Position numbers and translations under genes: made by a program. A stretch of DNA of 58,652 nucleotides from a virus (taxonomy: Duplodnaviria; Caudoviricetes): IMG/VR virus record IMGVR_UViG_3300025154_000110, positions 1-58,652 of that record, one strand, 5' to 3'. The notes beneath the pieces are model-generated. The model was not told the DNA's origin and searched no databases. It was given only the letters and a program-made list of their open reading frames with translations. This document shows positions 3,101 through 33,701 of this stretch, one piece after another. The first letter of the stretch is position 1. Every line of letters begins with the position of its first letter.

Positions 3101-6100
3101 GTCAATCATGCCTATGATTCATTCATGGACCTTGCCGATATTCTTGGAGTCCCGCCAAAGGCCATTTCGCTGAACGGTCTTCTTGGCATTGCCATTGGCG
3201 CACAAGGGACCGGCCAGTATGCGGCTCACTTCGTACCGGGGGTGAATGAGATCAACCTGACAAGGACCGGCGGGGCCGGATCGGTGGCTCATGAGTGGGC
3301 ACACGCCCTTGATCATTATTTTGCAAGGCAGGCAGGTCTTGAGCGGTCTTCGGTTCCGTTCCTGACAGAAACATTCATGGGTCGGCTGCAGGGCGATATC
3401 AGGCCGGAAATAGTTGGGCATTTCAAAAAGATTGTTGATGCGATGAACCGCCGGCCGATGACCGAAGAGGAGCTTGCGGCAAGACGTGAGAAGTCAGAGG
3501 ACCGCACATCGAGGAATATTGACGGCTGGCTTAAAGAAATTAGGCGCAAGGCGGTTGAGGGGATCGGCCCGGAAATTATGACTTTGCGCGACGGGCAAGA
3601 TGTTCCTGTCGTTTCGGAAGTTGACAGGCTGGTAGAGAGGATAAGGAGCGGTGATTTCGGGGAAGGAACTGTCCAGGTAACGAAGCCGGCGCACTATAAC
3701 GCCATCCCGACATTTCTTTCTCCAGCTGTTGCCGAGTTGCGCGACCTTCACAAGACAATTCAGCGGCGAGCCCCTGCCATTGACGATTACAAGGCGCTCC
3801 AGGCGAATATTGACAGCCTGAACTATCGCAAAAGTTCAGATGAGCAGCAAGCAAAGCATATTCCGCAAACGACAACAGAATATGCGAGCAACGCCGCAAG
3901 GCTTGACAAAGGGAAGGGCGGAAAGAAATATTGGTCAACTGATCTTGAAATGTTCGCCAGGGCCTTTGACGCCTATGTGAGCGACAAGCTGGCTGAGAAT
4001 GCCGCGAAGAATACCTATCTTTCCCATGCCGGAAGAATGGGCGAGACGGTCCCGACGGGAAAAGAGCGCGAGGATATCAGCCTGGCATTTGACAACCTCA
4101 TCAAAATCATAGAGAATAAGGAGACAGAGAAAGGCGTTGCCCTCTATTCTACAAGTGAGGGAACCGGCAAAGACTTCCTGTACTACGACATGGGGGAGGA
4201 CACCAGTGAACAGGCGCAAAAGGATAATGCTAAACTCCGTGCGATATTCACGCCACGTGCTGGCTCTGTCGTGGCGAACTCTATCAAGGTTGTCAATGTA
4301 TCCGGAGCTGTCCGGAACTTTGCCGACCGGATCACAACCGTGTTCGGTAGACGCGCTGTTTTCTATCGAGCGGCACCGGGCGCGGGGCTGCCAAACGGCT
4401 TAATTGACCGCAACGACCCGAAGACCATCTACGTCAACGTAGATTCTGGATTCTCGCCGTCCACCATCATCGGGCATGAAACTCTTCATGCCATGCGCAA
4501 AGAGCAGCCGGCCCTTTACAATTCCCTTCTTCGCGCAGCCAACCGCAATATCAAGGTCGAAGTCTTCAACGAATACCGCGACAAGCTGAAGCGAAACAAG
4601 TTCCTGCAGGGCCGGGACATCAACCAGGACTATGTTGTTGAGGAGATGCTGGCCGACTATCTTGGCGACCAGTTTTCAAAGCCGGAGTTCTGGGAGAGCC
4701 TTGCGGAACAGCGGCCGAGCCTGTTCAAGCGCCTGGTTGCCTTCGTCAAGGCGTTCCTCGATGATGTGATCACAAACTTCCAAGGAATGAAGAACTTCCA
4801 GTCCGATCAGTTCTTCCTCGATGTCCAGAAGATGCGCGATGTCGCGGTCAAGGCCATGGCGCAGTACGGCGGAGCCGAGGCGTTCGTTGGCATGGAGCCT
4901 ATGGATATTCGGTTTGCGGAACAGTTCGGTATTACCGCAGAAGAGGCGCAGCGGCAGTATGATGCGGTCGTCGCCGAGTTCAAAGGTACTGACCAGTGGA
5001 TGAAAGCCCCCAACGGCAAGCCGACCAAGCTGAACGAAAGGCAGTGGGTGCAGGTGCGGACTCCTGCGTTTAAGGAGTGGTTTGGGCCGTGGGATTCTGA
5101 CCCGAAGAACGCCAGCAAGGTTGTGGACGAGAACGGTGAGCCGATGGTGGTGTATCATACTCATGGGAGTGAAACTGAACTGACTGAATTTAAATATGCA
5201 CAGCTTCCTGGTGGTGAGAGTAGGTACGACGCTACTAAGAAGGGCGGGTTTACATTTGCCCTCGAAGGGCTTTCTACTGGGTGGTTTACCAGGAGAGAAA
5301 ATCAGTTCAAAACGTGGAAGAAGGAAGATGGAAGCAATGTAATTTCCGGGTTTGCCAATTTTAAAAACCCAATAGTTATTGAGCCTGGGCCATCAGAGCA
5401 AGCGGAGTTTCTTGATAAGAAGCGAAGATATGCAGAACTGCAGCAGAAACTCAACGCTGTTCGCAGCGGAAAGGAGTATTTGCCATTCAAGAAAGTAGGA
5501 GAGTTGCAGCAGGAGTTGTCCGAACTTGAAAAAGATATCAGGCCGGATTTACAAAAAGAGCGGCAGATACTCGACCTTGATAACCAGATAAACACTGGGT
5601 CGTCGTTATCGAAGACGAAGATAGCCGAGTTGCAGAGACATCTCACTAAGCTGGCTAAAGCAACAGGGTCTCCGAAGGAAATACGAAAACGGCAAACAGA
5701 GCGAGGGTACGCAGACCCATTTTATCAACTCAGCAAGATGGCGAAGTCTGCGCACCGCGAGTTCCCTGAGCTTGTGCCAGGGGCGGCGCTACGCAAGGCG
5801 CTGTTGCAGGAAGGTACAGATGGGATAATTCTCAGGAAGACTAACGCTGATACAACTACATCAGACACAGAAGTAACTGATTGGGTTGTCCCATTAACTG
5901 GGGGGACGCAAATAAAATCCGCCACTGGCAACACCGGCCAATTCTCCCCCTCCACGGATGATATAAGGTACAGCGTCCAGCAAGCAGACGCCGACTACCA
6001 CTCCGACCTTTCCGAAGCGGCCACCAACCTGAAGAACTCCCGCCCGAAGAACGATATTTCACCCTGGGCGCCGATCTATTCCACCATGGATTATATGTCC

Positions 6101-9100
6101 AAGCTGGTCGGCGCGGCACGGCGGGCGTTTCAATCGCAGATGGACCGGCACGACACCCGGGTAAAGTTCGAGCGGAATATCCTCGGGAAACTCGGTGAGG
6201 ATGACGGGCTTATCCATTACCTCGACAACCTCCGGAAGACCGACAAGGCATCTTACGACGAGGGCGGCGGATACCTGCTGGAGACGGACAAGAGCGGCGA
6301 GTCGTTCAGGATCAAGCGGGGCACCGGCTGGCGAGTATTCGACAAGAACGGAGAGAACATGGGCACGGCCGACACTCAGGAGGAAGCCAACGAGCTGGCC
6401 CGCGACCTGTACAATGCCGACAACGCCCACTTCATCACCCGGGTTGAAGGAAAAGACAAAGACGGCAAAGATGTACTGTTCTGGGGGGTTGCCGGGGAGA
6501 AGTTCACCACCTACACGGACGCGCAGCGGGAAGCGGCGAAACTTTCCCGGGAAGAAGGCCGGTACATTAAGGATTATGAGCCGGTAAAGGCCGAGTGGTG
6601 GGACGTGATCAATCCCAAGGGAACCACCATCAAAACCTTTGACGACGAGCAGGCAGCCAAAGTTGAAATGATCCTGGCCGAAGCTGACCAGATGGAGAAG
6701 GACGGCCACGGCGCTGCGGCTATTGAAATGGTTGCGGCCTTCCGGGGCGCTACCAACCGGGCCTTTGATCTCCAGGTCGCGGATATGCGGCAAATGATCA
6801 AGGACGCCGAAGAGCAGGGCCTTGACATGCCGACGGTATCGGGTCCGGATGAATCGCGGCGCTGGGCAATATTTGACCGCGGCCGCAAGCTGGCCGAGTT
6901 TGAATCTCAAGACCTGGCTGAAGAGCATGTCACAGAACTGAAGAAGACGGCGCCACGGTATCAGGGATACACCGTCAAGCGGCAGAAGGACGGCGAAATA
7001 ATGAAAGAGTTCACCATGAAGGAGATGATTTCCCTCATGGGCGACCTGCGGGGATCATACTTCCCCCGGCAGCGCCAGCGCGGCGCCATCGTTCTGAGAG
7101 CCATTCACCCGGAGACCGGCGAGAAGGTCAGGGAGAACTTCGACCTTTACGCCCCAGAGCGGGAGACGGTAGACCCGGAGACCGGGCAGGTGATCAACTC
7201 GAAGACCAGGCAGGCCAGCAATTATATCAAGAAGAAGTTCAACCAGGCAACCGGGCATGTGCCATTTGTGCCGACTCTGGAGAAGCGGGCGCGTGAACTG
7301 CGCCGGCAGGGCTTTGAGATCAGTATCGAGCGCGACCAGGCCATGCCGGAAGCGGTCTTTGAAGCGGCGCACCTGATGGCCTCTGTCCATTCCCTGATGA
7401 CGGACGCCATGAACAAGAGCCAGAAGCAGGCGAACGCTACCATGGGCAAAGCCTACCACGAGTTCAACAAGGTGATGACGGAACAACTCGCCGGTATCTT
7501 CAAGGCCCGCGGCTATCTCTCGTCCAGGTTGCGGCGCTCAGAAGATTACTGGCAGGGGTTCGAGACTGACCCGACCAAGGCTATTGCGCAGTATTCAACC
7601 GGTCTTGCGGCCGGGCTCGCCAAGCGGCAGGCGGTCAAAGAGTTCGTGCTGGCCGTGACCGGGCGCGATGTCTCCTGGAAATCCTGGAAGGAAGAAAACG
7701 AGGGCGGCGATTGGGAAGGCTACCAGGCGTTTGTTGAGGACAGGCGTATTGACCCGGTAAAGCAGCCGAATATGTACAAGGAGACGATGAACTGGGGCCG
7801 CGAGGTATTCCGCAACGAAGAGCAGGCGGACCGGATCATCGGCACCTTGCGCGGCCTGGCCAGCATCAAGTTCCTCGGATTCCGGGTATCGTCCGCCTTT
7901 GTCAACGCCATGAACATGGTGCAGGCCGTGCCGGCGACCATCTCCGCCCTGACCGGAGGCAGCTTGACCGCGGCCTTCGGTTCAATCCGGCGGGCAGCGG
8001 TAGCCTACGGGAAATACCGTATGCAAAAGGGTTCGACGGAAGACCACAAGATTTTCGCCTATATCCACGGTCAGGGTTGGGATGCAGCTCAATTCAACCA
8101 TGAGGCATCGGCGGCGCTCAGGTCGAAGGCCGGCAACGCGATGAGCAATTTCATCGGGGCTTCCATGTGGATGTTTGGCAAAGTGGAAGAAGCGAACCGC
8201 TCCATGACCATTCATGCCGCCTATGACCAGTTCATCAGGCAGGCGAAGGCAAGCGGCGCGGACCTCGATATCGACCCGGAAACCGGTATTGATACTGCTT
8301 TGATGCTCAGGGCAAAGCAGGTATCAGACCAGAGCCACGGCATTTACGACAAGGGCACGGCGCCGGCCTGGACCCGGGGCGCAGCAAACCCGGTGAAGAT
8401 GCTCTACACCTTCATGAAGTTCCAGCACAACTACCTCCTGAACATGGGGGAGATGATCGGCCGCGACCAGTGGAAGCAGGCCGGGTACATGCTCCTTTCT
8501 CCGGCGATCCTTGCCGGGGCCGGGGCCAGCTTGGCGACCAAGGCCCTATTCCTGGCCCTTGGGCTCGGGGGTGACGGTGACGATCCGGAAGAGAAATTCT
8601 ATGCCTGGGCGGAAGAAACATTCGGTTCAGATACGCCTTTCCGGCATGGGCTGGCTGGTTTCGCCGGTATCAACCTGAAAGGCTCCATCCAGATGAACAA
8701 TCCCCTGCCGACTAGGCTTAGTGAAGTTTTTGGAGCACCAGGGGCGATCTTCACCGACACCGCCAAGGGGATCAAGCATTTCACCCGGGGCGAAGTTTAT
8801 AAAGGGGTTGAAGCTATCGCTCCTACAGCCTTCGGCACGATGTCCCGGGCCGTCAGGGAATACCGGGAGGGCGTGACCACTGGCGGCTATGGCCAAGTGT
8901 TCTACGGAACGGAACCGCTCAAGGCTGATGGCATGGACGCGGCGCTCAGGTTCTTCGGGTTCAACCCTTCGTGGATATCCGGGATCAGGGAGAAGCAGTG
9001 GAGCGAGAAGAAGGTTGCAGCCCGGCTCTCCCGGAGAAAAGACGAGATTCATTCCCGGCTCAAGCGGTTCCTTTTGCAGGATCCGGAAGACAGAGATATG

Positions 9101-9274
9101 GGCGATTATGCCGAGATAATGAAGATGGTGGATTCGCTCAACGAGGATATTCTTGCGGTCGGCAGGGCGGATATCAGCCCAATAACCAACAAGAGCCTGA
9201 AGGCGGCAATGAAGCGGGCCTTCCAGCCGAACAGGCGCGAAAAGGTGCGGGCCGCTGAAAATGATGAAGAATAG
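80..9274 (+). CDS. Giant polyvalent internal virion / DNA-ejection protein, C-terminal 3064 aa (continues in frame from 55907 across the junction)
   Basis: LPD5-like segment (KSKVYPRPDY), zincin HEWAH at 3290 with an LPD1-like YWSTDLEMFARAFDAYV, second HETLH at 4475, ART-PolyVal-like region (RTPAFKEWFG...VVYH...KNP...DGII...QIKSATGN), helical C-terminus; position typical of podophage giant genes. Confidence 0.88.
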   Translation: MVREAARWKGAAQKVAETLTDKKAQLALSRQTTKGDLDAYLMRKFGVDESTARDVSNELTRQNIPADMTADPADFASEPWNTKPTPPAVSTEDRVETSALASDDMRGLSFAVTNKAGAVVTSGTVPALADQKHETSKAEYYRDLADKAGGALYISRTRGAKVSSPEEGLILGRTWQQIQDMQAGKYTPPGVKAKMPEGAVEVYSSSTASDLQPPAPVSKGAESEKESDLPRAETVTEPSTKAAPALTELSLFRNGATHTVPVENLHRYLLEEFGIGGQVENTQQGVAVAINTHQSANTLRKAFSDYDTVVLSKGGELGQYLLIRPKDVRSEGRKQLPAPPADSIPGPTPGEKSPGVSLADLEQQLATATSLKDKRELRKQVKEMKVAQEEPKQAETPAPESTNFPISKHGSAAILVSGNPDDIKAKLAAAGIKAKGRVKKGRGMLFPVRMEGEIMAALGEVKPIKAVPEMTKEEYLSSQQGRGDLWFHEQQIRRRVEGGNFISKNILSEYPELVVELEAGIKSGEYSKVRDGELIKYVKGAGKAADRRAAQDNRIVKDSDLETAEDIGSRVQSISKQIEALDDIQNPKDFDKHNEKYRKLVERRETLVNKANTLKRAKSDTVQRDQDRVDTAGETEVAQAVSEEPQGGEEKGSSTEDVGRELSYNKRNRLKGLKWSDLEKMDPSLRVREAVKSKVYPRPDYQAMIDSGMRPQVAHIVKQAYDSIPAKPRKTTDEAIQQYLSAITMAMSRVTGWAESAESDKWLASMADRASRRLQRGAVSVTSMIETPSKSLYDTVFPGGRKAQADEARILGRKFVAAIQPGLDEVVKAMKDIEKGWPGAVKAWQKRGFSIVDGVGATARVFLGENERRGKYASIHIEMGRSGITDYIILDGVESESDPAIKEYIDKTLAGINGKKLLLNKNGKLVSAHDTQESAEAAAEEQTKRKGKETVSDRGISVEQTEREGKQHRKEGEDISTERLAEAFGFSGVNFGNWMKGQGNAKERQLHVNHAYDSFMDLADILGVPPKAISLNGLLGIAIGAQGTGQYAAHFVPGVNEINLTRTGGAGSVAHEWAHALDHYFARQAGLERSSVPFLTETFMGRLQGDIRPEIVGHFKKIVDAMNRRPMTEEELAARREKSEDRTSRNIDGWLKEIRRKAVEGIGPEIMTLRDGQDVPVVSEVDRLVERIRSGDFGEGTVQVTKPAHYNAIPTFLSPAVAELRDLHKTIQRRAPAIDDYKALQANIDSLNYRKSSDEQQAKHIPQTTTEYASNAARLDKGKGGKKYWSTDLEMFARAFDAYVSDKLAENAAKNTYLSHAGRMGETVPTGKEREDISLAFDNLIKIIENKETEKGVALYSTSEGTGKDFLYYDMGEDTSEQAQKDNAKLRAIFTPRAGSVVANSIKVVNVSGAVRNFADRITTVFGRRAVFYRAAPGAGLPNGLIDRNDPKTIYVNVDSGFSPSTIIGHETLHAMRKEQPALYNSLLRAANRNIKVEVFNEYRDKLKRNKFLQGRDINQDYVVEEMLADYLGDQFSKPEFWESLAEQRPSLFKRLVAFVKAFLDDVITNFQGMKNFQSDQFFLDVQKMRDVAVKAMAQYGGAEAFVGMEPMDIRFAEQFGITAEEAQRQYDAVVAEFKGTDQWMKAPNGKPTKLNERQWVQVRTPAFKEWFGPWDSDPKNASKVVDENGEPMVVYHTHGSETELTEFKYAQLPGGESRYDATKKGGFTFALEGLSTGWFTRRENQFKTWKKEDGSNVISGFANFKNPIVIEPGPSEQAEFLDKKRRYAELQQKLNAVRSGKEYLPFKKVGELQQELSELEKDIRPDLQKERQILDLDNQINTGSSLSKTKIAELQRHLTKLAKATGSPKEIRKRQTERGYADPFYQLSKMAKSAHREFPELVPGAALRKALLQEGTDGIILRKTNADTTTSDTEVTDWVVPLTGGTQIKSATGNTGQFSPSTDDIRYSVQQADADYHSDLSEAATNLKNSRPKNDISPWAPIYSTMDYMSKLVGAARRAFQSQMDRHDTRVKFERNILGKLGEDDGLIHYLDNLRKTDKASYDEGGGYLLETDKSGESFRIKRGTGWRVFDKNGENMGTADTQEEANELARDLYNADNAHFITRVEGKDKDGKDVLFWGVAGEKFTTYTDAQREAAKLSREEGRYIKDYEPVKAEWWDVINPKGTTIKTFDDEQAAKVEMILAEADQMEKDGHGAAAIEMVAAFRGATNRAFDLQVADMRQMIKDAEEQGLDMPTVSGPDESRRWAIFDRGRKLAEFESQDLAEEHVTELKKTAPRYQGYTVKRQKDGEIMKEFTMKEMISLMGDLRGSYFPRQRQRGAIVLRAIHPETGEKVRENFDLYAPERETVDPETGQVINSKTRQASNYIKKKFNQATGHVPFVPTLEKRARELRRQGFEISIERDQAMPEAVFEAAHLMASVHSLMTDAMNKSQKQANATMGKAYHEFNKVMTEQLAGIFKARGYLSSRLRRSEDYWQGFETDPTKAIAQYSTGLAAGLAKRQAVKEFVLAVTGRDVSWKSWKEENEGGDWEGYQAFVEDRRIDPVKQPNMYKETMNWGREVFRNEEQADRIIGTLRGLASIKFLGFRVSSAFVNAMNMVQAVPATISALTGGSLTAAFGSIRRAAVAYGKYRMQKGSTEDHKIFAYIHGQGWDAAQFNHEASAALRSKAGNAMSNFIGASMWMFGKVEEANRSMTIHAAYDQFIRQAKASGADLDIDPETGIDTALMLRAKQVSDQSHGIYDKGTAPAWTRGAANPVKMLYTFMKFQHNYLLNMGEMIGRDQWKQAGYMLLSPAILAGAGASLATKALFLALGLGGDGDDPEEKFYAWAEETFGSDTPFRHGLAGFAGINLKGSIQMNNPLPTRLSEVFGAPGAIFTDTAKGIKHFTRGEVYKGVEAIAPTAFGTMSRAVREYREGVTTGGYGQVFYGTEPLKADGMDAALRFFGFNPSWISGIREKQWSEKKVAARLSRRKDEIHSRLKRFLLQDPEDRDMGDYAEIMKMVDSLNEDILAVGRADISPITNKSLKAAMKRAFQPNRREKVRAAENDEE

Positions 9275-9275
9275 T

Positions 9276-9304
9276 TTGATTTTGGCTTGTGTTTTTCATA
9301 TAAT
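9276..9304 (+). promoter_or_regulatory. Sigma70-type promoter
   Basis: TTGATT-N17-TATAAT. Confidence 0.7.
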
Positions 9305-9385
9305 GGGAATAGCGAAATTATACTTTACCCGTACCAGGTAATATAAAGAGGACACGGCCATGTAGCGGACATGACTTTACATCGA

Positions 9386-9483
9386 GAATAACATCGGTTC
9401 CCGAATTTCCCTGCAAGCGCAGGATCGAATGAGGCCCGACAAGCGAAACGGTATCAGCGCCGTTCTTCTTGTCGGGCTTTTTT
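9386..9483 (+). ncRNA. Structured leader/attenuator RNA, copy A
   Basis: GAATAACATCGGTTCC...GAGGCCCGACAAG...CTTGTCGGGCTTTTTT; paralogous to 33702-33798 with compensatory changes. Confidence 0.7.
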
Positions 9484-9513
9484 ATTTTCTAGGCCATCTT
9501 CGAGAGGAGAATC

Positions 9514-10029
9514 ATGAAAAGAAATACCTTGCTTTTGATCGTAGCCCTGCTGGCGCTGCCGTCGCTTTCATTTGCCGGCGGAGCCTGTGTCTTGCAAGAG
9601 GTCGGCGGCAACTACATCTACCAGGGCCAGATGCTCTTCGAATGCACGGCCAGCTCCACAGACGCCTCAATGTCGCACACCTTCGACGGGACACATAGCC
9701 TTGACGCTATTACTATGGCTCTGCTTGACGGCCGGTATGTCAAAGGTGCACTGGCCTATGACGGCGCCGGTACGGACCCCACCACCAATACTTCCCTGAC
9801 AGTTACGGACAGCGACGGCTTCATCTATGTCAACCCGGCCAGTAACGGCCTGGAGGTGATTGATTCCGGAGGGAAAAACTCATTCTACTTCCTGGGGCCT
9901 GACGGGAATGCCGGCTTTCGTAGCCTTCCTGGCGGTAAACCGCTGACCTTCGCCTGGAACGGAAACCTGGTCAATAGCGGGGTCCATTACCTTCTGCTCG
10001 ATGTCACCGGAGAGAGGAACGCGCGATGA
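9514..10029 (+). CDS. Signal-peptide-bearing beta-rich protein (putative virion-associated)
   Basis: MKRNTLLLIVALLALPSLSFA leader; GAGGAG SD; first gene after attenuator A. Confidence 0.75.
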   Translation: MKRNTLLLIVALLALPSLSFAGGACVLQEVGGNYIYQGQMLFECTASSTDASMSHTFDGTHSLDAITMALLDGRYVKGALAYDGAGTDPTTNTSLTVTDSDGFIYVNPASNGLEVIDSGGKNSFYFLGPDGNAGFRSLPGGKPLTFAWNGNLVNSGVHYLLLDVTGERNAR

Positions 10030-11429
10030 AAAAGCTGATAATTCTCTCATCCCTCCTGCTTCTCGCCCTCCCGGCCGTCGCTGCAGAGAAGTATCTGCGC
10101 GTTGACGATTATATCCCGGCCATCCCTCCCCCCTGCCGCGCTCCAATCCCCTACGTGGCTGCATCTTACGATGGGACAAACTGCTACGTACCGGCTGATG
10201 TTTTCCGCGATGTGGTGGAAGCTCTGCCCGCCGCGGTAGTAGTAGACGACACCCCCAGCGAGGGCAACACGACCGAGGCGGCAAGCTCCAACTCGGTGTA
10301 TGACCATACGGTAGATACTACGGATGTCCACGGTCAGACCGATATGGATAATCCCGTTTTCGACAGTGCCACCGTTGAAGCCACGCTTGGGGCCAACGCC
10401 GTGACGATAGATGCAACCTGCACCGGATGGTCTGCTGGTGGAGCCTTGCTTGACTGCGGGGCCGGGAACACAAACGGGTGGTGCTGTAACGCTTCTACCT
10501 CAGTGCAGAAAATCGCGGATGGTACTACTGCGATTACCTACAATGCCGGGGAAGCAGACGGCCAAGATGTTCAGCTTGTTTATACCACAAGTGGCCTGAG
10601 TGGAGGCAATATTAGCGCCTCTGGCGGTGGGATTACGCTGTCTGCTAACTCGACAAACAATACATTTACTGTAAACGGAACATTTACGGGAACAGGGAAT
10701 CTCACATTCACCCCGTCTGTAACAGGTGTGCGGGTAGTCCTCAGTGGTGTTTCAGTAAAAGCGATTACCAACGGCGCGGCAACGACCTATGGGGAAACCT
10801 CGAAGGGTAACTATGTATCGTATTTTGCGGGGACGGAGAAATATAAGAATTTCTATATTGATCCATACAATACTGGTCCAGCAACCACCTCGCCCGGAAT
10901 GTGGCACGATGGCACATATTTCCGTATCGGGTCTGTAGTCGCAGGCGGAGTCCCGGTATATGTGCAGGGAGGTAGTGTCACTTTACAGGCAAACGGCACA
11001 GTTTCGAGCCTTCTATGGGACGGGCAGGGGCTCTACCCGACAGCAGGTGATATGTTGTTTGGTTACAGCAAATTTGGGACAAAATTTCCAGTATACAAAG
11101 TCGCGGTAAGCGATATCGTAAATACCAATAGCGGCGCTGTTCCTGTTTTATCCTCCTGCGGCACGACCCCCGCTGTTGCTACAGGTTCGAGTAATTTTTC
11201 TGGTAAAATAACCTTTGGCACATCTGCCGGCACTCCATCTGCCTGTACATTAACCTGGGGCGTTGCATACACCAATACTCCTGAATGTACCGTAACTGTA
11301 GTCGGCGCAGTTGATGCATATTTACGAATTACAGCAGAAAGCAACACCGCGATGACCGTGACTGCTTCCGGTGCATCTGATTTAAGCAGCACATCCTTTA
11401 ACTACAACTGTGTTGGTTTGAATGAATGA
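10026..11429 (+). CDS. Signal-peptide-bearing tail fibre / receptor-binding-like protein
   Basis: MKKLIILSSLLLLALPAVAA leader; T/G/S-rich beta repeats; Cys-containing C-terminal tip (LSSCGTTP...SACTLTW...FNYNCVG). Confidence 0.7.
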   Translation: MKKLIILSSLLLLALPAVAAEKYLRVDDYIPAIPPPCRAPIPYVAASYDGTNCYVPADVFRDVVEALPAAVVVDDTPSEGNTTEAASSNSVYDHTVDTTDVHGQTDMDNPVFDSATVEATLGANAVTIDATCTGWSAGGALLDCGAGNTNGWCCNASTSVQKIADGTTAITYNAGEADGQDVQLVYTTSGLSGGNISASGGGITLSANSTNNTFTVNGTFTGTGNLTFTPSVTGVRVVLSGVSVKAITNGAATTYGETSKGNYVSYFAGTEKYKNFYIDPYNTGPATTSPGMWHDGTYFRIGSVVAGGVPVYVQGGSVTLQANGTVSSLLWDGQGLYPTAGDMLFGYSKFGTKFPVYKVAVSDIVNTNSGAVPVLSSCGTTPAVATGSSNFSGKITFGTSAGTPSACTLTWGVAYTNTPECTVTVVGAVDAYLRITAESNTAMTVTASGASDLSSTSFNYNCVGLNE

Positions 11430-12124
11430 GTATGGACGAGTGGAATAATTACAACTGGCCGCTTATCTCGTTCGCCTTTGACGATGGTGGGGTGAATACC
11501 TATACCGCTGGGCTGCCGCTATTCCAGGGTTTTGGTGTGCCTGCTTGTGTAGGGATCATTGCAACGTACCCCGGCAACGAGGTTGCAGCAATGACCTGGG
11601 ACCAGCTTCGTGGATTACAGTCCGCGGGGTGGGAGATTTGCAGCCATAGTTACGACCACGATTTGGCAGGCTGGTATCCTCAAAGCGAAGAGTTTATGAC
11701 TACCCAAACAATCGCATCAATGGAAGCTCTGACAGCACAAGGACTGAAAGTAAGTAATTATATTTGTCCGGGTGCTACTCCATTCCCGTATGATGTAGTG
11801 CCGGATTCAGTAAAACATTATCACAGTGCCAGAATGACAAATGTAGGCGTAAATCAGATGCCCCTGGCGTGTCCAGCAGTTTGGCAGTTGAAGGTGCAGA
11901 ACCTTGATGGCAGGGACATTGCTACATGCAAGGCTATAATTGATACAGAGATGGGTTACGCCGCAAAAGGGTCACGACATTGGATTATTTTTTACGGACA
12001 TCAATTTAACGCTGCTGATGTAACATTTTTAACTGAGTTGCTGACATATATCCAGAGTAAAAACCTCGGCATATACACGATTCAGCAGGCGTTAGATATT
12101 GGTGGGGTTGTTCGGAATGACTGA
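11426..12124 (+). CDS. Polysaccharide deacetylase (NodB/CE4 family)
   Basis: FAFDDG, WEICSHSYDH, YICPG and IFYGH motifs. Confidence 0.85.
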   Translation: MSMDEWNNYNWPLISFAFDDGGVNTYTAGLPLFQGFGVPACVGIIATYPGNEVAAMTWDQLRGLQSAGWEICSHSYDHDLAGWYPQSEEFMTTQTIASMEALTAQGLKVSNYICPGATPFPYDVVPDSVKHYHSARMTNVGVNQMPLACPAVWQLKVQNLDGRDIATCKAIIDTEMGYAAKGSRHWIIFYGHQFNAADVTFLTELLTYIQSKNLGIYTIQQALDIGGVVRND

Positions 12125-12711
12125 TGACATCCTGGGATAAATGGGTAGTTATCATAATCATCATGCTGATGGTAACTCTGGCCGTCCAGTCCAGAGGCAC
12201 GGTGATAGAAGGAGCTTTCGAGGATTGCGATTGGGAGTGGCGACCGTGGGCAACAAATGCGAGAGCATGGGATAAACCAGATCAGTTTTACGAGATCGGC
12301 CACGGATACTCCAGAGCGTTCTACCCATACTGCGGGCGGGACATGGTTATCCCTGAAAACATCGCGGCTGGTGGGTACGGCTTTGGCTTCTTTGCATCGT
12401 GCAGCGGCCTTTGCTCCACGGCGGACGGAACTTTTGCCGAATCGGTTGACGAGGCGGTTGGCTACTGCGGAATGGACGAAGCGAGCTGCGCTGAGTGCTG
12501 GCCGCAGACAGTGGCTTGGCAGGATACTTTCTACCGGGAAATGAGCAACGGGGCAGAGGTACAAGAGGCATTTGACGCAGCGATGAACGCGGTCCCGGCC
12601 TGCCTACCCTGTCTGCGTTATCACAAGAAACGTGAGCCGGAACAGGTGAACGAAACGCAGGTTGTACTGGCTACGGTAATCGTTCCGTGGCTGATGCGGT
12701 GGAGAGAATGA
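12124..12711 (+). CDS. Exported Cys-rich protein, putative clan CD (caspase/gingipain-like) peptidase
   Basis: N-terminal hydrophobic leader, GHG and FFASC dyad-like motifs, FY..M..G..V.EAFDAA C-terminal helix, hydrophobic C-tail. Confidence 0.5.
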   Translation: MTSWDKWVVIIIIMLMVTLAVQSRGTVIEGAFEDCDWEWRPWATNARAWDKPDQFYEIGHGYSRAFYPYCGRDMVIPENIAAGGYGFGFFASCSGLCSTADGTFAESVDEAVGYCGMDEASCAECWPQTVAWQDTFYREMSNGAEVQEAFDAAMNAVPACLPCLRYHKKREPEQVNETQVVLATVIVPWLMRWRE

Positions 12712-12908
12712 AAATCAAACTCAGCGGCAAGGTTAAAAGTCCCCTCGGATCATGCCCATACTGCACGAAGCAGATTGTTGGGGAGAAGTTTATCAAGACG
12801 GCTTCTGAGAAGAAACTCATTGGCCCGTGTCCGCACTGCGGTGAACTACTGCGTTATTATATTATCAATCCTCACGTTTTCGTGAAGGTAAAAAGGGGGG
12901 AATCATGA
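12708..12908 (+). CDS. Small zinc-ribbon protein
   Basis: CPYC...CPHC; ATG overlaps the upstream stop. Confidence 0.6.
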   Translation: MKIKLSGKVKSPLGSCPYCTKQIVGEKFIKTASEKKLIGPCPHCGELLRYYIINPHVFVKVKRGES

Positions 12909-13672
12909 AACGACTTATCATTTTATCGCTGGCAATATTCATCACCTGTGGGAGTTGTTCGGCGTACTCCATGGGGTATTTTCCTAAAGACGATCCGGCA
13001 CCTACGCCAACCCCTGTTCCAGTTCCCGATCCGCCAGCGCAGACGGTCACAACTGAGTACGGCGAGCGCAAGGTTTACAACAGCGAGGTGGATTTTCATT
13101 TCACAAAACCTATTGCGGCCTACGGCAAGTTCAACCTCACCATCGCTGGGAAGAAATACACGATCCAGACCAGTTACAAAGACGTCGTAATCGAGGTTCG
13201 CAACTCGCAGACAACCGGCAAGATGGTGGTTATCGCCGGGGCCGGATATAAGGACAAGACCGCGACCGTTACCTATCCTTCGACCGACGCCCTGACCAAG
13301 CCTGACACCACCCCGCTTCCGGTGACGCCCCCGACTGACGGAGCGATTGAATCAAAGCGGTTTGCCCACATCAACCACATGAGTTGGAAGGGCCAGGGAA
13401 CCACCATTGTTTTCTGCGCCGGGGATGATGTTACCAGTGTAACTTTCCATGATACTCCGTTTCATTTTCACATGAAGGACGGCACGGACAAAGGACCGGG
13501 CCGGGAACAGTGGACAAACCATTACTTTCAGAAAAAGAGCGAGACGCAGACCGCAGGCTGGTTTGTATGGACCATCGGCGGGAAAACGCACAAATACTAT
13601 TCTGATGGGCGCGGGGATGGACTGAGTGACTACCAGAAGCATACCGGGGACTGTTACAAGAAATACAACTGA
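12905..13672 (+). CDS. Exported protein with signal peptide and Pro-rich linkers
   Basis: MKRLIILSLAIFITCGSCSA leader; PAPTPTPVPVPDPP linker. Confidence 0.7.
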   Translation: MKRLIILSLAIFITCGSCSAYSMGYFPKDDPAPTPTPVPVPDPPAQTVTTEYGERKVYNSEVDFHFTKPIAAYGKFNLTIAGKKYTIQTSYKDVVIEVRNSQTTGKMVVIAGAGYKDKTATVTYPSTDALTKPDTTPLPVTPPTDGAIESKRFAHINHMSWKGQGTTIVFCAGDDVTSVTFHDTPFHFHMKDGTDKGPGREQWTNHYFQKKSETQTAGWFVWTIGGKTHKYYSDGRGDGLSDYQKHTGDCYKKYN

Positions 13673-13682
13673 GGAGGAAAGC

Positions 13683-13883
13683 ATGAACGTGAATACTGGG
13701 CACCTTGTTAGTAATGACTTTTGGGACACAACACCTACCGCTGACAGGTCGAACTACCAAGAGATCCCCGCGCACCTGAACCGTGCCGCCAGGAGAAAAC
13801 TCGCTGGCAGGAACGAAGCAAAGGTAGCTCTGAATTCTGGTGGCAAGCTGTCACGCTGGGCACGGAAGCAGAGATCAAAGTAA
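13683..13883 (+). CDS. Small basic hypothetical protein
   Basis: GAGGAGG SD before MNVNTGHLV. Confidence 0.6.
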   Translation: MNVNTGHLVSNDFWDTTPTADRSNYQEIPAHLNRAARRKLAGRNEAKVALNSGGKLSRWARKQRSK

Positions 13884-13894
13884 GGAGGGGAAAC

Positions 13895-14104
13895 ATGAAA
13901 CTATTTATTGCTTTGGGATTTGCTCTGATGCTGGCCGGCTGTGCAAACAGTAGCCGGAACTTGACGGTGAAAGTGTACGACGGCGGGACGCTGATGATCT
14001 GTCACTCTACCATTTCCCCGGAGGTCATGAAGTCGAACACGGACGAAAGGGCTACGAACACTCCTGACATCAAGCCGGAAGTTACCATCCCGCTGGTCCC
14101 GTGA
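13895..14104 (+). CDS. Small lipoprotein (possible o-spanin-like)
   Basis: Lipobox LAGC after hydrophobic leader; in the lysis cluster. Confidence 0.65.
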   Translation: MKLFIALGFALMLAGCANSSRNLTVKVYDGGTLMICHSTISPEVMKSNTDERATNTPDIKPEVTIPLVP

Positions 14105-14114
14105 GGCGGAACGG

Positions 14115-14303
14115 ATGTTTCTTAAATTAATTCTCCCAGCAATTTTTCTCAGCGCCGGATGGTTTTTTATCGGGGCATCGGCGGTAATGGCGTCGGTTGA
14201 CTTCACTGATTTCTCTTTCGTTACCGGCGAATCCGTTAGGGTTTGTGCTGTAGGAATAGCATTGCTTGGGCTGGCAGGTTTAAGTTTCTTCTATTTTAAT
14301 TGA
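14115..14303 (+). CDS. Small two-TM membrane protein
   Basis: Two hydrophobic segments. Confidence 0.5.
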   Translation: MFLKLILPAIFLSAGWFFIGASAVMASVDFTDFSFVTGESVRVCAVGIALLGLAGLSFFYFN

Positions 14304-14311
14304 GGGGTATT

Positions 14312-14512
14312 ATGAATATATTTGAGCAGGCATGGGATTTCTTCGACAAAAAGAAAGTCGCAATCGGCTCTCTCCTGATGATGATTGCGATAGTCATGCG
14401 AAATAATCTGCCGGAATATGCAGGGTGGGCAGATGTTATCGAGGAAATAGGTCTTCTGCTTGGTGGCATCGGATTCGCCCACAAAGCTGTGAAGGAGTAT
14501 CGCGGTGAGTGA
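14312..14512 (+). CDS. Holin-like two-TM protein
   Basis: KKKVAIGSLLMMIAIV...LLLGGIGFAHKAVK; GAGGGG SD. Confidence 0.55.
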   Translation: MNIFEQAWDFFDKKKVAIGSLLMMIAIVMRNNLPEYAGWADVIEEIGLLLGGIGFAHKAVKEYRGE

Positions 14513-14927
14513 GTACGACGGTCAGCTAGATACCGAGGTCTATTATCGGGACAACCTCAAGTATGTTACTGCACGGCGTCATGCGTACAAGACCAAGTTG
14601 CGGCCAGGGCGCGACATCTACGGCAAGTTCGTCTCACTCCTGACGTGCGGCGTTTTGATCATCGAGGAAGGCTGCCCCTGGAATGGTGCGAACGTGGTCC
14701 CGGACAGGCGGACAAACATGCGAGCCTCGCTCATCCACGATACTCTCGTTGGCATGATCCAGGCCGGTATCCTTGATCCAAAGTTTAAAACTGAAGTTGA
14801 CGAAGAATATTATGACACCTGCCGCCAGGACGGGATGTGGCTATTCCCGGCAATCACTGAATTTTGGGGTGTTCAGCTTCATACTTGGGAACGAACTCCA
14901 ATCGACGCAATAAAGGTGGCACCATGA
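14505..14927 (+). CDS. DUF1353-like protein
   Basis: W-N-G-A...RASLIHD..., D..Y...C..DGM pattern typical of lysis-cluster DUF1353-type genes. Confidence 0.55.
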   Translation: MSEYDGQLDTEVYYRDNLKYVTARRHAYKTKLRPGRDIYGKFVSLLTCGVLIIEEGCPWNGANVVPDRRTNMRASLIHDTLVGMIQAGILDPKFKTEVDEEYYDTCRQDGMWLFPAITEFWGVQLHTWERTPIDAIKVAP

Positions 14928-15115
14928 AGAAAAACAGCAAGATATATGTTAGCAACACCGGCCTGGACTGGCACAAGCGATATTTCTCTCACTGGCTTGA
15001 CGGACGAGCAATCTGTTTCACTGGTGGCTGCACTTCGTGGTCTGCGGACGGAACTGCTTCATGGGAATTCTGGAAAGATAAACAAGGCAGAATCAAAACG
15101 ATACTAAACAAGTAA
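14924..15115 (+). CDS. Hypothetical protein
   Basis: W..RYFSH..DG...CF.GG.TSWS motif; coupled to the upstream stop. Confidence 0.55.
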   Translation: MKKNSKIYVSNTGLDWHKRYFSHWLDGRAICFTGGCTSWSADGTASWEFWKDKQGRIKTILNK

Positions 15116-15153
15116 GCCTGTGAGCCCATAGGGCCGGGGCAAAGGATGGAGCA

Positions 15154-15471
15154 ATGGAAGCTGGCGAAGCGGCAAGCTATGGGAAACTGGGGGTGCTTGT
15201 GTTTACAGCGTTCTCTGCAGTATCGGCCTTTGTCTGGAAGGCTCATCGGCACGGGGAAAAGATTGAAGATTTGGAACGAGCCGTTTTCCCGGATGAACCA
15301 GGGCGCAAGCTATTAACTCTTGATTGGCATGATCGGATCCAGGCCGAATGTGAGCGGCAGAGGGCAAAAGACATGGAGATTTTGTCAGCTCATATTGTTG
15401 AACAGCTCCGCGATAAACTGGATGAGATCAAGAATGAATTCTGGGAGCGGAGAAGGGAGCCACGGCAATGA
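15154..15471 (+). CDS. Membrane-anchored coiled-coil protein (holin/i-spanin-like)
   Basis: N-terminal TM followed by charged helix. Confidence 0.55.
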   Translation: MEAGEAASYGKLGVLVFTAFSAVSAFVWKAHRHGEKIEDLERAVFPDEPGRKLLTLDWHDRIQAECERQRAKDMEILSAHIVEQLRDKLDEIKNEFWERRREPRQ

Positions 15472-15587
15472 GCAGGCTCACAAAGCAATACCTGGCGATG
15501 GCAGGCGCGATCCTCGGCCCGGTGCTGACGTTCATTTATTTCTGGTTCTGCGGGTATGAACCGGAGTGCTGGTGGTGTTTGCTATGA
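15468..15587 (+). CDS. 39-aa membrane peptide (not in ORF track)
   Basis: MSRLTKQYLAMAGAILGPVLTFIYFWFCGYEPECWWCLL; ATGA overlaps at both ends. Confidence 0.5.
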   Translation: MSRLTKQYLAMAGAILGPVLTFIYFWFCGYEPECWWCLL

Positions 15588-15814
15588 GCGATAATCTGCC
15601 CTGCATCTGTGGGGGAAACTGGAGAAAGATTGTCAATGAAGCAGAAGCATTGCTCGACAAAACGTTCTGCTGCGATGGCAGAAAATATATATTCTACGGG
15701 GTAGTGCACGGCTCCGACGATTATTATTACGGAATGGTTGACTGCGAGAACGGTAAATGCAGGCTTCTGTCATGTGTCGGCTCAATTGAACAGCATGGGT
15801 TTAGCCTAATATGA
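15584..15814 (+). CDS. Hypothetical Cys-containing protein
   Basis: FYGVVHGSDDYYYGM...LLSCVGSIEQHGF. Confidence 0.6.
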   Translation: MSDNLPCICGGNWRKIVNEAEALLDKTFCCDGRKYIFYGVVHGSDDYYYGMVDCENGKCRLLSCVGSIEQHGFSLI

Positions 15815-16143
15815 GCGGCCAGTGGCGGGAGCAGGTTGTAAAGCGGGCCACTAGAAGCAACGGATGGGCCAAGGTAAGGGCTGAACACCTTGAAAAGAAT
15901 CCTGCCTGCGCATGCTGCGGGAAAACGGTGAAATATCTCAAAACGTTTCGGATGCAGGTACATCACAAGATGCCATTCCACATCGTGCCGGAATTGGAGC
16001 TTGACTCGAAAAACCTCATCACCCTCTGCGGAGATCCATGTTGCCACTTCGACAAGGGGCATCCGCGGAACTGGAAATCGCACAACAAGAACGTTGTCCG
16101 GGACTGCGCGGTATGGCTGAGGAAATACAGGAGCAAGCCATGA
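15811..16143 (+). CDS. HNH endonuclease
   Basis: CACCG...QVHH...NLITLC...CHFDKGH. Confidence 0.85.
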   Translation: MSGQWREQVVKRATRSNGWAKVRAEHLEKNPACACCGKTVKYLKTFRMQVHHKMPFHIVPELELDSKNLITLCGDPCCHFDKGHPRNWKSHNKNVVRDCAVWLRKYRSKP

Positions 16144-16727
16144 ACTCCGAAGCGTTCCAACTCGCATTTGCTAGGACCATGAAGCACGAAGGAGGTTTCA
16201 GCCACGACCCTGCCGACCCAGGGGGCATGACGTATCAGGGCATATCAAGGGTGCATTTCCCTGAATGGCAGGGCTGGGAGATAGTTGACCGGCTCCTGCA
16301 AGGATCTTCTACCCCGGCCTTTTCTAACCAGCCTGAACTGGCAGAGATGGTGCGGAAGTTTTATGAACTTGAGTTCTGGACACGCATACAGGGTGACTTC
16401 ATCTCGTCGTTGTCGAAAGACTCTGTTGAGATTGCGGCGGAACTGTTTGACACGGCAGTAAACCTCGGACGGCGCAGGGCGATAGAGATACTCCAATCAG
16501 CGCTGAACCTGCTAAACCGCAACGGACTAGCATACCCTGATATCTGCGAAGACGGCAGGATGGGGTATCAAACGGCGGCGGCACTGGCACAGTATGTAGA
16601 GCGTAGAGGGTTTGAGGTTGGGGCACTGGTCAAACTGATGAACCATCTGCAGGGCTGGCACTACATAAACCTGATGCGGAAATATCCTGATAAAGAGCGG
16701 TTTGTAGGGTGGTTTGCGAGGACATGA
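16140..16727 (+). CDS. Endolysin, glycoside hydrolase family 108 with PG-binding C-terminus
   Basis: HEGGFSHDPADPGGMTYQGIS, FDTAVNLG, RFVGWFAR; start reassigned to MNSEAF. Confidence 0.9.
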   Translation: MNSEAFQLAFARTMKHEGGFSHDPADPGGMTYQGISRVHFPEWQGWEIVDRLLQGSSTPAFSNQPELAEMVRKFYELEFWTRIQGDFISSLSKDSVEIAAELFDTAVNLGRRRAIEILQSALNLLNRNGLAYPDICEDGRMGYQTAAALAQYVERRGFEVGALVKLMNHLQGWHYINLMRKYPDKERFVGWFART

Positions 16728-18661: not shown

Positions 18662-18780
18662 GGTCAATATTTCTTTGTAATCACTTTCCTGTTTTGCTAG
18701 TATTATTACTTGCCGTCCAGCAAATTAGCTTAACGTCTTAGATTGGACAAAGTTGGACACGGCCTTTTCGCAACTGGCCA

Positions 18781-18811: not shown

Positions 18812-18821
18812 AGGAGTTATT

Positions 18822-33688: not shown

Positions 33689-33701
33689 TGAATTGAAAAC
33701 T

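Follow-up and report, generated by a model that had tools for sequence, protein, structure and literature searches.

The window, that is, the whole 58,652-nt stretch of phage DNA analysed here, contains at positions 9276–16727 a late transcription unit that we read as linking the lysis genes to a portable cassette whose products are exported and directed at the envelope. With a probability of about 0.5, the cassette products would act as late exported helpers that are tied to lysis and directed at the host envelope or its glycans, and would not be docked on the particle. This reading is favoured because export signals lie on five of seven genes under a shared leader and terminator, because the order of the cassette is kept among phages with unrelated virion genes, because the enzyme slot holds interchangeable, signal-less sugar enzymes, and because the four Cys of the fibre knob are near-invariant over 106 family members and published analogues exist.

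Late transcription unit and its leader

Three regulatory elements were identified in the window:

9276–9304, plus strand: sigma-70-like promoter (TTGATT, 17 nt, TATAAT; 10 of 12 matches), immediately 3' of the giant virion gene's stop codon
9386–9488, plus strand: conserved leader element and intrinsic terminator (stem at about 9431–9443/9467–9479, T-run to 9488)
33660–33798, plus strand: duplicate set of promoter, leader and terminator, upstream of the terminase/head operon

A ribosome-binding site, GAGAGGAG, lies at 9502–9509, downstream of the first leader. Positions 9386–9442 matched 33702–33760 at 80% over 59 nt (E = 1.3e-8), and the terminator stems of both leaders were near-identical, with two compensatory pairs. 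These matches bear out the proposal of an earlier note on this DNA that the cassette and the terminase/head operon have a leader RNA in common. The leader reached the gathering score of no Rfam family. Both leader-headed units would be opened together, late in infection, by antitermination.

The open reading frames of the earlier note were recovered at the same positions. Overlaps of 4 nt were found for 9514/10026, 10026/11426 and 12687/12905 (genes are named by their first position), and one of 1 nt for 11426/12124. A search of the DNA of the whole region against phage records gave no match.

Export signals

The genes considered for export, and their partners, were as follows:

9514–10029, plus strand: 171-aa small protein, predicted exported, with signal peptide, conserved Cys25 and a beta-sandwich (Atlas model)
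10026–11429, plus strand: 467-aa fibre-like protein, predicted exported, with 10 Cys, a signal peptide called by our script and fibre-like features
11426–12124, plus strand: 232-aa CE4 polysaccharide deacetylase (PF01522), signal-less, its start overlapping the stop of the fibre gene
12124–12711, plus strand: 195-aa protein, predicted membrane-anchored or exported, conserved across the four phage types; nine Cys and a hydrophobic C-terminal tail are invariant
12687–12908, plus strand: 73-aa zinc-ribbon protein with no export signal and a weak Lar-like PHROG match
12905–13672, plus strand: 255-aa protein, predicted exported, containing Pro-rich linkers and likewise conserved across the four phage types
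13895–14104, plus strand: 69-aa lipoprotein with lipobox LAGC, possibly an o-spanin or Cor-like, conserved at the DNA level in other phage types
39647–41029, plus strand: 460-aa fibre-like protein, predicted exported, inside the head module
47163–47900, plus strand: tail-module protein without signal peptide, tandem paralogue of 47911
47911–48705, plus strand: 264-aa paralogue with an extra 23-aa signal peptide, its C-terminal half resembling KPP25 gp07 (a 'virion structural protein' by the database record's own annotation)

Signal peptides were called with a crude script of our own, not SignalP, which looks for a basic n-region, an uncharged hydrophobic core and small residues at −3/−1. The script flagged five of 75 called ORFs (9514, 10026, 12124, 12905 and 39647), and also 13895 and 47911 once these were given their own starts. 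The signal peptides that the earlier note had read on the first four, the lipobox on 13895 (L-A-G-C is present) and its count of at least six late genes predicted to be exported, including 39647 and 47911, therefore held in this test, with seven genes flagged; the N-terminus of 12124 may be an uncleaved signal anchor. Within the seven consecutive genes of the cassette five carry export signals, and elsewhere only 39647 and 47911 do. This clustering (five of seven vs seven of about 77 overall) had a hypergeometric probability of 2.1e-5, or 1.5e-3 after multiplication by 71 gene windows, the run having been chosen post hoc. The description of the exported proteins as Cys-rich stood in part: they showed a modest excess (32 of 1881 residues, 1.7%, vs 180 of 15437, 1.17%, in the remainder), but some signal-less tail proteins were richer in Cys. 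The product of 39647 matched nothing in phage records or in the records of four relatives (L020 not among them). The discoidin-domain protein 48715 is a candidate receptor binder without a signal peptide.

Fibre, knob domain and deacetylase

The C-terminal part of the fibre forms a distinct domain:

11118–11426, plus strand: C-terminal knob of the fibre, with four conserved Cys, an H-type-lectin/fibre-tip-like fold and a predicted homotrimer

A single-sequence fold of the whole 10026 fibre was unusable (pLDDT 34). For the knob, the best match of the predicted fold was to the R1 pyocin fibre 6cxb (Z = 7.5, rmsd 3.5 Å over 87 residues), followed by the Pam1 tailspike (7.3), LKA1 gp49 (7.2), Helix pomatia agglutinin (7.0, rmsd 2.5 Å over 75 residues) and AP22 gp53 (6.9); all Z values were below 8, where the tool warns that they may reflect just a common arrangement. 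Foldseek matched the knob to an H-type lectin at E = 0.019, and Pfam H-lectin gave no match at E up to 0.1. In the trimer test, the knob scored 0.91 against 0.12 for the best control, a mark attained by 20 of 30 solved pairs and one of 23 single chains. A trimer test, of the sort proposed in the earlier note, was passed by the knob, and the note's description of the 10026 product as a tail-fibre-like protein with a Cys-bearing tip agrees with the fibre-like features, the four conserved tip Cys, the fold and the trimer.

The knob belongs to a family of approximately 100 residues with 893 clusters at 50% identity, in which the four Cys were invariant or nearly so over 106 members. A Pfam scan of these 106 proteins assigned no family to the knob, and found elsewhere in them only seven pectate-lyase-like matches and one beta-helix; a PDB sequence search with the knob profile gave nothing significant. 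Of the 42 complete knob proteins from viral contigs, 35 have a signal-peptide-like N-terminus. Signal-bearing knob proteins often adjoin tail genes, some lying directly 3' of baseplate or tail genes, and in a PHROGs check four of the 10 listed knob loci adjoined baseplate, tail or virion genes. Judging from sequence, the four-Cys knob appears to define a large family that marks exported fibres, both phage and bacterial.

At the other end of the fibre, a Pro-rich motif right behind the signal peptide is common to the fibres of 10026 and L007 and to a further signal-bearing fibre candidate in L077, in phages whose tails differ. The N-terminal part of 10026 showed no similarity to proteins of relatives L002–L006, nor any sign of being matched to the phage's own tail, and an exact-peptide search for the 10026 fibre in viral contigs gave no match. 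A homologue of 9514 precedes the big exported protein in both L007 and L020.

The coupling of the fibre to a CE4 deacetylase, as claimed before, was supported by the 4-nt overlap with 11426 and by the match of 11426 to PF01522 (E = 2.6e-10, 40.7 bits, cut-off 23.1). CE4 enzymes contain Asp-Asp and His-x3-His motifs with metal or catalytic roles. F-D-D-G and H-S-Y-D-H are readable in the translation of this predicted deacetylase and align to BpsB. The protein scored below the NCBIfam equivalog cut-offs for HfsH (27.2 bits vs 400) and PgaB (21.5 vs 321.9).

Back half and lysis genes

The exported proteins of the back half are followed by the lysis region:

14115–14303 and 14300–14512, plus strand: two small two-helix membrane proteins, the second (holin-like) conserved in L007 and L016
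14505–14927, plus strand: 140-aa protein that accompanies the block in L016 and L020 at the DNA level
15154–15471, plus strand: 105-aa protein, i-spanin-like by eye: a single helix at the N-terminus, then charged, coiled-coil-like sequence
16038–16727, plus strand: endolysin (GH108 plus PG_binding_3)

The products of 12124, 12905 and 13895 showed no similarity to families in Pfam, PHROGs, NCBIfam or PDB sequences, apart from two weak matches of 13895: Pfam LPAM_1 (E = 0.008, 17 bits, below the cut-off of 20) and a Cor-like match (E = 0.0035). PDB sequence searches with the 12124 and 12905 family profiles gave nothing significant, and the ESM Atlas held no usable match for the 12905 product. 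Caspase-like or YkuD-like assignments of 12124 by His...Cys spacing, and a PEP-CTERM-like assignment of its C-terminal tail, were dropped as motif resemblance alone. The lipobox of 13895 is kept in the L007 homologue. By eye, 15154 and 13895 fit an i-spanin/o-spanin pair; the two genes are not adjacent, and 15154 matched nothing in PHROG or NCBIfam.

The cassette in other phages

Co-occurrence in related uncultured phages, which the earlier note had proposed as a check, was found: the cassette recurs, its gene order kept, in three further phage types (L007, L016 and L020) whose virion genes are unrelated, and three cassette-family profiles matched only these phage types among all loci compared. 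Its conserved back half consists of 12124, 12905, the lipoprotein, the holin-like protein and the 14505 product, and adjoins the endolysin gene. In the L007 type, which has a tape-measure-like gene, identity was 71% for 12124, 67% for 12905 and 62% for 14300; the lipoprotein and 14505 genes were matched in other phage types at the DNA level. The front half is variable, with large exported proteins and cytoplasmic sugar enzymes; the 9514 family accompanies the conserved block in three of the four phage types. The enzyme slot holds CE4 here, GDSL in L007 (E = 2e-10) and GT2 plus an O-methyltransferase in L016, all of them non-homologous sugar enzymes without signal peptides.

The cassette is absent from the five loci that have the giant virion protein in common with this phage, and different genes lie at that spot; L002 and L006 carry fibre-like genes without signal peptides at the position of the fibre gene. 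Neither the 12124-family profile nor the knob profile recovered a relative from genome contigs that could point to a host. The cassette would move between unrelated phages, presumably of one host group.

Comparison with known systems

The earlier statement that no characterised system of this kind is known was too strong, XepA of PBSX and the stx/nanS-p slot being close analogues. As in these, the cassette has the lysis genes on one side and the late control element or tail genes on the other, and its products are predicted to be exported. Stx toxin subunits are Sec-exported and glycan-binding, and the capsid protein of the present phage is a member of a family present in Stx-converting phages. 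For the stx/nanS-p slot of Stx-converting lambdoid phages, the published account describes products freed at lysis and a sugar O-acetylesterase gene that comes next (PMC10462455). In contrast, we found neither toxin-gene homology nor any hint of toxicity, and the present cassette has a fibre as cargo and CE4 as enzyme. XepA of Bacillus subtilis PBSX is described as produced late after induction, exported past the cytoplasmic membrane and absent from mature particles; its gene is flanked by the tail genes and by those for holin and endolysin (PMC6834076). By analogy, the present cassette would resemble it in having late exported products encoded between tail and lysis genes; however, no sequence relation was seen, the PBSX host is monoderm, and XepA is a single pentameric protein, in contrast to the several genes here, which include a lectin-tipped fibre and a sugar enzyme.

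In its modelled fold and predicted homotrimer, the knob resembles the tips of R-pyocin and phage fibres and H-type lectins (Z = 6.9–7.5), but all Z values fall below 8 and Pfam H-lectin is unmatched. The solved fibres 6cxb, Pam1, LKA1 gp49 and AP22 gp53 are not known to carry signal peptides. In small lipoproteins and membrane-anchored periplasmic proteins encoded beside lysis genes, the back half recalls two-component spanins and lambda Bor/Lom-type proteins; 12124 and 12905, however, are larger, Cys- or His-rich, and match no PHROGs spanin family. The MAT fibres of Bdellovibrio bacteriovorus have a signal peptide, a conserved N-terminal part, a trimeric form and swappable adhesive tips, the latter shown on the cell surface (PMC10769870). 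[quoted passage not shown]

Discussion

We propose that the signal-bearing proteins would cross the inner membrane via Sec and then form periplasmic disulfides. The lectin-like trimer would bind a host surface glycan, precursors of which would be altered by the cytoplasmic enzyme, and the set would act on the host envelope in late infection and lysis, for instance by masking or modifying receptors or by aiding release. Against such a role, it is not apparent how a periplasmic protein would reach the cell surface.

The earlier note, whose observation was confirmed and whose interpretation was partly supported, had also raised periplasmic maturation and joining of virions during lysis. Spelled out as a two-compartment assembly, this would have signal-bearing fibre and decoration proteins acquire their disulfides while maturing in the periplasm. 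Docking on completed particles would follow once the holin has breached the inner membrane, no later than the failure of the outer one. We regard this as possible but unlikely. Some of the data fit it too, because the knob fold is a true tail-fibre-tip fold, because the fibre gene occupies the position of the signal-less fibre-like genes of L002 and L006, and because signal-bearing knob proteins elsewhere follow baseplate or tail genes. The passed trimer test, the tail-fibre position of the gene here and in L007, L077, L042 and L036, the many signal-like starts among viral-contig knob proteins, the structure of 47911 as a tail-module protein plus exactly a 23-aa signal peptide, and co-transcription with virion genes point the same way. 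Docking is less favoured because the cassette, including the fibre N-terminal motif, is common to phages with unrelated tails, so that the fibre N-terminus does not follow tail type, because relatives sharing the giant virion protein are cassette-free, and because the exported 47911 has a signal-less tandem paralogue, 47163. The phage has other candidate receptor binders that lack signal peptides, such as 48715, and literature searches on signal-bearing or exported phage fibres and virion proteins, and on exported homologues of receptor-binding proteins in superinfection exclusion (most matches judged without full text), yielded no report of a Sec-exported virion fibre in a tailed phage. It is similarly doubtful, if conceivable, that the knob family marks a widespread class of periplasm-matured fibres in some diderm-host phages.

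The back half (12124, 12905 and 13895) could instead simply belong to the lysis machinery, as a new means of breaching the outer membrane or some additional layer of the envelope, with the front half as unrelated passengers. This seems improbable to us: the back half always adjoins holin-like and endolysin genes, it is what the four phage types conserve, and its combination of a membrane anchor, a Pro-rich exported product and a lipoprotein recalls spanin topology, but it resembles no known family, 15154 and the lipoprotein already form a candidate spanin pair, and the 9514 family travels with the block. Slightly less probable still are ordinary, unrelated morons or lysogenic-conversion genes (surface proteins, exclusion lipoproteins) expressed from a prophage. 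Phage morons frequently encode exported proteins near tail-fibre or lysis genes, 13895 has its weak Cor-like match, and in L002, the closest relative, one gene looks integrase-like when its N-terminal sequence is read by eye; start–stop overlaps, a terminator-bearing late leader and an order kept in four phage types speak against it, and no integrase was found in the present 95%-complete record. That the signal peptides are false positives, namely hydrophobic N-termini of cytoplasmic proteins, is very improbable. The calls came from a crude script whose background was 72 flagged in 459 ORFs, the knob proteins being among those counted, but all five show by eye the full n/h/c layout with small −3/−1 residues, homologues retain a signal-like start despite sequence divergence, and conserved Cys pairs suit an oxidising compartment.

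If the fibres join particles, it could no longer be assumed that virion assembly in tailed phages is entirely cytoplasmic, and receptor-binding-protein pipelines that discard signal-bearing proteins would miss a class. If the products are non-virion helpers, as we favour, the cassette would be a portable, multi-gene late export cassette moving among unrelated phages, and its lectin-like fibre with swappable sugar enzymes would be a candidate means by which phages manipulate receptors or the envelope as infection ends.

The phage genome and the position of the cassette

The virus record in the window comprises 58,652 bp, with an estimated completeness of 95%. Positions 6–131 and 58527–58652 are identical, so the window is a circular permutation of a 58,521-bp unit. 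An open frame at 55907–58651 continues in frame into 80–9274, and the last 17 residues of the former are the first 17 of the latter. By sequence similarity, the head genes place the phage with the podophages having a 933W/F116/Epa33-type capsid, its capsid protein being at most 46% identical to those of cultured phages.

Major head protein: phrog_334, E 1.3e-106
Portal: phrog_156
Large terminase: among the head genes used for placement
55907–58651 joined to 80–9274: polyvalent virion protein of approximately 3,960 residues, spanning the ends of the permuted contig

LPD1, ART-PolyVal and InPase domains are present in the giant protein, which lacks cysteine altogether. The cassette of exported-protein genes (9514–14104; genes are named by start coordinate) begins 240 nt past the stop of the giant gene, and is followed by small membrane proteins and then the GH108 endolysin at 16038. 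Three further genes lie dispersed about the early region and the lysis region, one encoding an HNH endonuclease (18753–19307, PHROGs) and two encoding products judged HNH-endonuclease-like by eye only (15811–16143 and 19788–20183). A tandem array with a 15-nt period (21464–21767, 14 overlapping copies listed) lies between a Rha-like regulator gene and recombination genes, and could represent iterons or regulator sites; a run of GAACAG repeats (31414–31479) is present within a DnaD-like replication gene.

Probable late control

The leader of the cassette and its second copy consist of the following elements.

Directly after the giant gene: promoter-like TTGATT-17-TATAAT
Approximately 130 nt past this promoter: extended, G+C-rich hairpin and T-run, followed by the start codon (ATG) of 9514 behind a strong ribosome-binding site
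33702–33760: second leader copy, behind TTGACA-17-GATAAT and ahead of the terminase/head operon

The segment 9386–9442 recurs at 33702–33760 with 80% identity over 59 nt (E 1.3e-8), the terminator stems of the two copies are near-identical, and the joint fold of both leaders retains two upstream hairpins with two compensatory pairs. The sharing of a leader between the cassette and the terminase/head operon, proposed in the earlier note, was thus confirmed by sequence repeat, terminator stem and joint fold. No Rfam family matched the leader. By analogy with lambdoid late operons, these leaders may act by antitermination.

Export signals in the cassette

The ORF positions reported earlier were reproduced, with start/stop overlaps between ORFs. 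Signal peptides were assessed with a crude rule set of our own rather than SignalP, which asked for a start that is basic, a hydrophobic core free of charged residues, and small side chains at −3/−1. Five of the 75 called ORFs were positive (9514, 10026, 12124, 12905 and 39647), as were 13895 and 47911 once read from their own start codons. The signal peptides claimed for 9514, 10026, 12124 and 12905 therefore stood, together with those of the outlying genes 39647 (head module) and 47911 (tail module), and the lipobox of 13895 is a textbook one; the N-terminus of 12124 may be an uncleaved anchor. Exported products account for five of seven consecutive genes in the cassette, against seven of approximately 77 overall (chance 2.1e-5, or 1.5e-3 after 71 windows, in a post hoc comparison). 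The description of the exported set as Cys-rich held only in part, since its Cys content (1.7% vs 1.17% for the rest) is modestly raised and two signal-less tail proteins are richer. The region 49882–52232 encodes two signal-less, very Cys-rich tail-module proteins (11 Cys in 217 residues and 12 in 571).

The last approximately 35 residues of the 12124 family, compared between 12124–12711 of the window and two other viral contigs (L007, 11709–12290; L016, 7926–8516), are nearly invariant, though overall identity is only 56–72%. This tail consists of a charged stretch, approximately 12 hydrophobic residues and basic residues, a layout that looks like a sorting or anchoring signal.

The fibre and its C-terminal knob

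The 10026 product is a putative fibre of 467 residues with a C-terminal four-Cys domain, the knob. The whole protein retrieved seven proteins including itself at E ≤1e-3 among 8,000 candidates, one of these few relatives matching at the N-terminus only and one over 76% of the length. The last 103 residues, the knob, retrieved 893 proteins at E ≤1e-3 and 19 at 1e-10 (HMMER, 1.84 billion representatives), carried by proteins of approximately 120 to 1,800 residues. Among the best 150 of the 893, nearly all matches leave only a few C-terminal residues uncovered, one stopping 27 short. The four Cys are invariant or nearly so across 106 members, in all of which the knob was unmatched in Pfam. The sequence starts with M in 136 of 149 knob proteins examined, and 103 of these 136 have a hydrophobic N-terminus.

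The knob was predicted to fold as a beta-sandwich (69-row alignment, mean pLDDT 82.7), most 10-residue blocks from residue 31 averaging pLDDT ≥90. Foldseek gave only weak matches in the PDB, the best being Helix agglutinins (E 0.019), followed by R-pyocin fibres and a cyanophage tailspike; among viral models, the best were uncultured Caudovirales proteins (E 1.9e-5, TM 0.64), and the matches include proteins named H-type lectin or tail fibre. In a structure search other than Foldseek, the top match was the tip of the R1 pyocin fibre (Z 7.5, rmsd 3.5 Å, 87 residues), followed by Pam1 tailspike (7.3), LKA1 gp49 (7.2), R2 pyocin fibre (7.1 and 7.0), Helix pomatia agglutinin (7.0) and AP22 gp53 (6.9), all of these Z values being below 8, a range where a match can reflect a common arrangement. 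The predicted kinship of the knob to fibre tips and lectins rests on the consistency of the match list. Prediction of a knob homotrimer scored 0.91 (best control 0.12), with contact agreement between runs of 68% or more and pLDDT of 79 or more. Of 30 solved pairs, 20 attain the mark used, as does one of 23 single chains; these counts are only rough because our own alignment and three copies were used. Since similar trimers have already been solved, the predicted trimer would indicate likeness to them.

Knob proteins in other viral contigs

Scanning viral contigs with the knob alignment identified 68 loci with 48 distinct tips. The 5′ end was complete for 42 of the 48, and 35 of these 42 were positive in the crude signal-peptide test, compared with a background of 72 of 459 ORFs in the same loci, knob proteins themselves included. 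For 32 of the 48 tips, no more than five residues separate the end of the knob from the stop. Neighbouring genes were listed in ten larger loci, and ten neighbouring proteins from four of them were searched against PHROGs. The knob gene lies downstream of baseplate hub and wedge genes in L077, with wedge directly upstream. In L042 its neighbours encode a distal tail protein and a J-like central fibre; in L036, an internal virion protein and a capsid of the family found in the window; and in L070, a virion structural protein. At several loci the fibre adjoins a small protein with a signal peptide. The myovirus-like contig L077 encodes, after the baseplate genes, a 174-residue and then a 633-residue exported protein (8394–10822); the latter is a second fibre candidate with the same Pro-rich motif after the signal peptide as the fibre of the window.

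Recurrence of the cassette in other phages

The co-occurrence analysis proposed in the earlier note was performed, and the cassette was found to recur as a unit in other viral contigs (L007, L016 and L020). L007 lies on a 66.6-kb contig with a 1,295-residue tape-measure-like gene, which implies a tail of a kind other than that of the window. Its 702-residue knob protein, P0148, resembles the 10026 product both in the knob (48% over 98 residues) and in the motif that follows the signal peptide, and the gene order of L007 is that of the window.

Cassette genes of L007, in order
Small exported homolog of the 9514 product: 31%
Exported fibre: P0148
GDSL/SGNH hydrolase, signal-less: PF13472, E 2e-10, in place of the CE4 enzyme
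12124 homolog: 71%
12905 homolog: 67%
Zinc ribbon, then lipoprotein
14300 homolog: 62%
SleB-like lysin: by sequence motif

The 12124 and 12905 families are also present in L016 and L020 (54–56% and 43–50% identity), where the gene in front encodes an unrelated exported protein (672 or 694 residues), and a 9514-family protein was found in L020 too. At the DNA level, all three other phage types keep the lipoprotein gene, L016 and L020 both keep the 14505 gene, and L016 additionally keeps the 14300 gene; the profiles of three families match only these phage types among all loci compared. L016 carries GT2 and rhamnosyl-O-methyltransferase genes; upstream of its cassette (1087–4641) lie a GT2 glycosyltransferase–rhamnosyl O-methyltransferase fusion and a second GT2/methyltransferase-like gene. 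Five loci have the C-terminus of the giant virion protein in common with the window (35–51% identity), and these five contain no homolog of any cassette gene; the closest has a different lipoprotein and a different exported protein ahead of the lysis genes. From this comparison across phage types, the unit consists of two halves: a conserved back half bound to the lysis genes, and a variable front half of large exported proteins and cytoplasmic sugar-modifying enzymes.

In the window, the enzyme slot is occupied by 11426, whose assignment as a CE4 deacetylase was upheld (PF01522, 40.7 bits vs a cut-off of 23.1). The named models closest to it are HfsH and PgaB, for which it scores far below the cut-offs. 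HfsH works in the cytoplasm. Neither 11426 nor any other enzyme of the variable slot has a signal peptide. Together with the cytoplasmic location of HfsH, this suggests that the slot enzymes act on glycan precursors inside the cell, with the lectin-like fibre outside the inner membrane.

Exported genes outside the cassette

The C-terminal half of the 47911 product resembles gp07 of Pseudomonas phage KPP25, a 'virion structural protein' by annotation (31.7%, E 6e-7). A related record encodes a full-length, signal-less ortholog at the same tail-module position, and the first 23 residues of the 47911 product align as an insertion before the start of this ortholog. The window itself encodes a paralog.

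47163 (ATG) to 47900: signal-less tandem paralog just upstream of 47911, with its own ribosome-binding site

The two products are 36% identical over 236 residues (E 7e-24). The ortholog and paralog both being signal-less, the exported 47911 copy is an extra one. Also in the tail module, 48715–49881 encodes a signal-less protein with a discoidin (F5/8 type C) domain below the Pfam cut-off, a candidate receptor binder; six repeated 43-nt segments (49408–49822), mostly 63 nt apart, encode a Leu/Gly-rich motif in it.

The 39647 product had no match in cultured phages or in the records of four relatives. Its homologs in viral contigs comprise one full-length protein at 84% identity and three more types at 50–56% over part of the length. 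All four homologous ORFs with a complete 5′ end have a hydrophobic start; a fifth, with its frame open to the contig end, begins alike, and a sixth is truncated at the 5′ end. The gene sits after head genes in L092 and L094/L095; in the unrelated phages of L092 (4052–5323) and L094 (4029–5798) the homologs follow these genes directly and have hydrophobic N-termini.

Discussion

We considered whether the signal-bearing fibres join particles at lysis. Virion fibres are favoured by the fold and predicted trimer of the knob, by gene position, by late co-transcription, and by 47911, a tail-module protein to which a signal peptide has been cleanly added. Fibre N-termini normally track the tail to which they attach. 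However, the cassette and the fibre N-terminal motif move among phages with unrelated tails, phages with the same giant virion protein lack the cassette, and the conserved half goes with the lysis genes. Furthermore, the exported tail-protein copy is spare, and other candidate signal-less binders exist, such as the discoidin-domain protein 48715. The accessible literature on phage fibres, virion proteins and receptor-binding proteins that are exported or bear signal peptides did not yield any description of a tailed phage whose virion fibres pass through Sec. Docking on the particle is a tentative reading, to which we give about one chance in four.

The association of the back half with lysis genes would also suit a conserved half of pure lysis machinery and a front half of unrelated passengers, which we regard as unlikely. 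That the genes are ordinary morons, despite recurring as a unit, seems slightly less probable again, and false signal peptides would be very surprising.

The reading we favour, with a probability of about 0.5, is a late, exported helper cassette directed at the host envelope or at glycans and tied to lysis. Cell-encoded, signal-bearing fibres with swappable tips are described for Bdellovibrio (PMC10769870). XepA of PBSX is described as an exported protein that is missing from particles, with its gene lying after those of the tail and before the lytic cassette (PMC6834076). In Stx phages, the stretch from the Q-controlled late start to the lysis cassette holds the nanS-p esterase gene as well as the toxin operon, and their products are set free at lysis (PMC10462455). 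Late exported non-virion proteins at this position have published precedents in XepA and the Stx-phage cargo.
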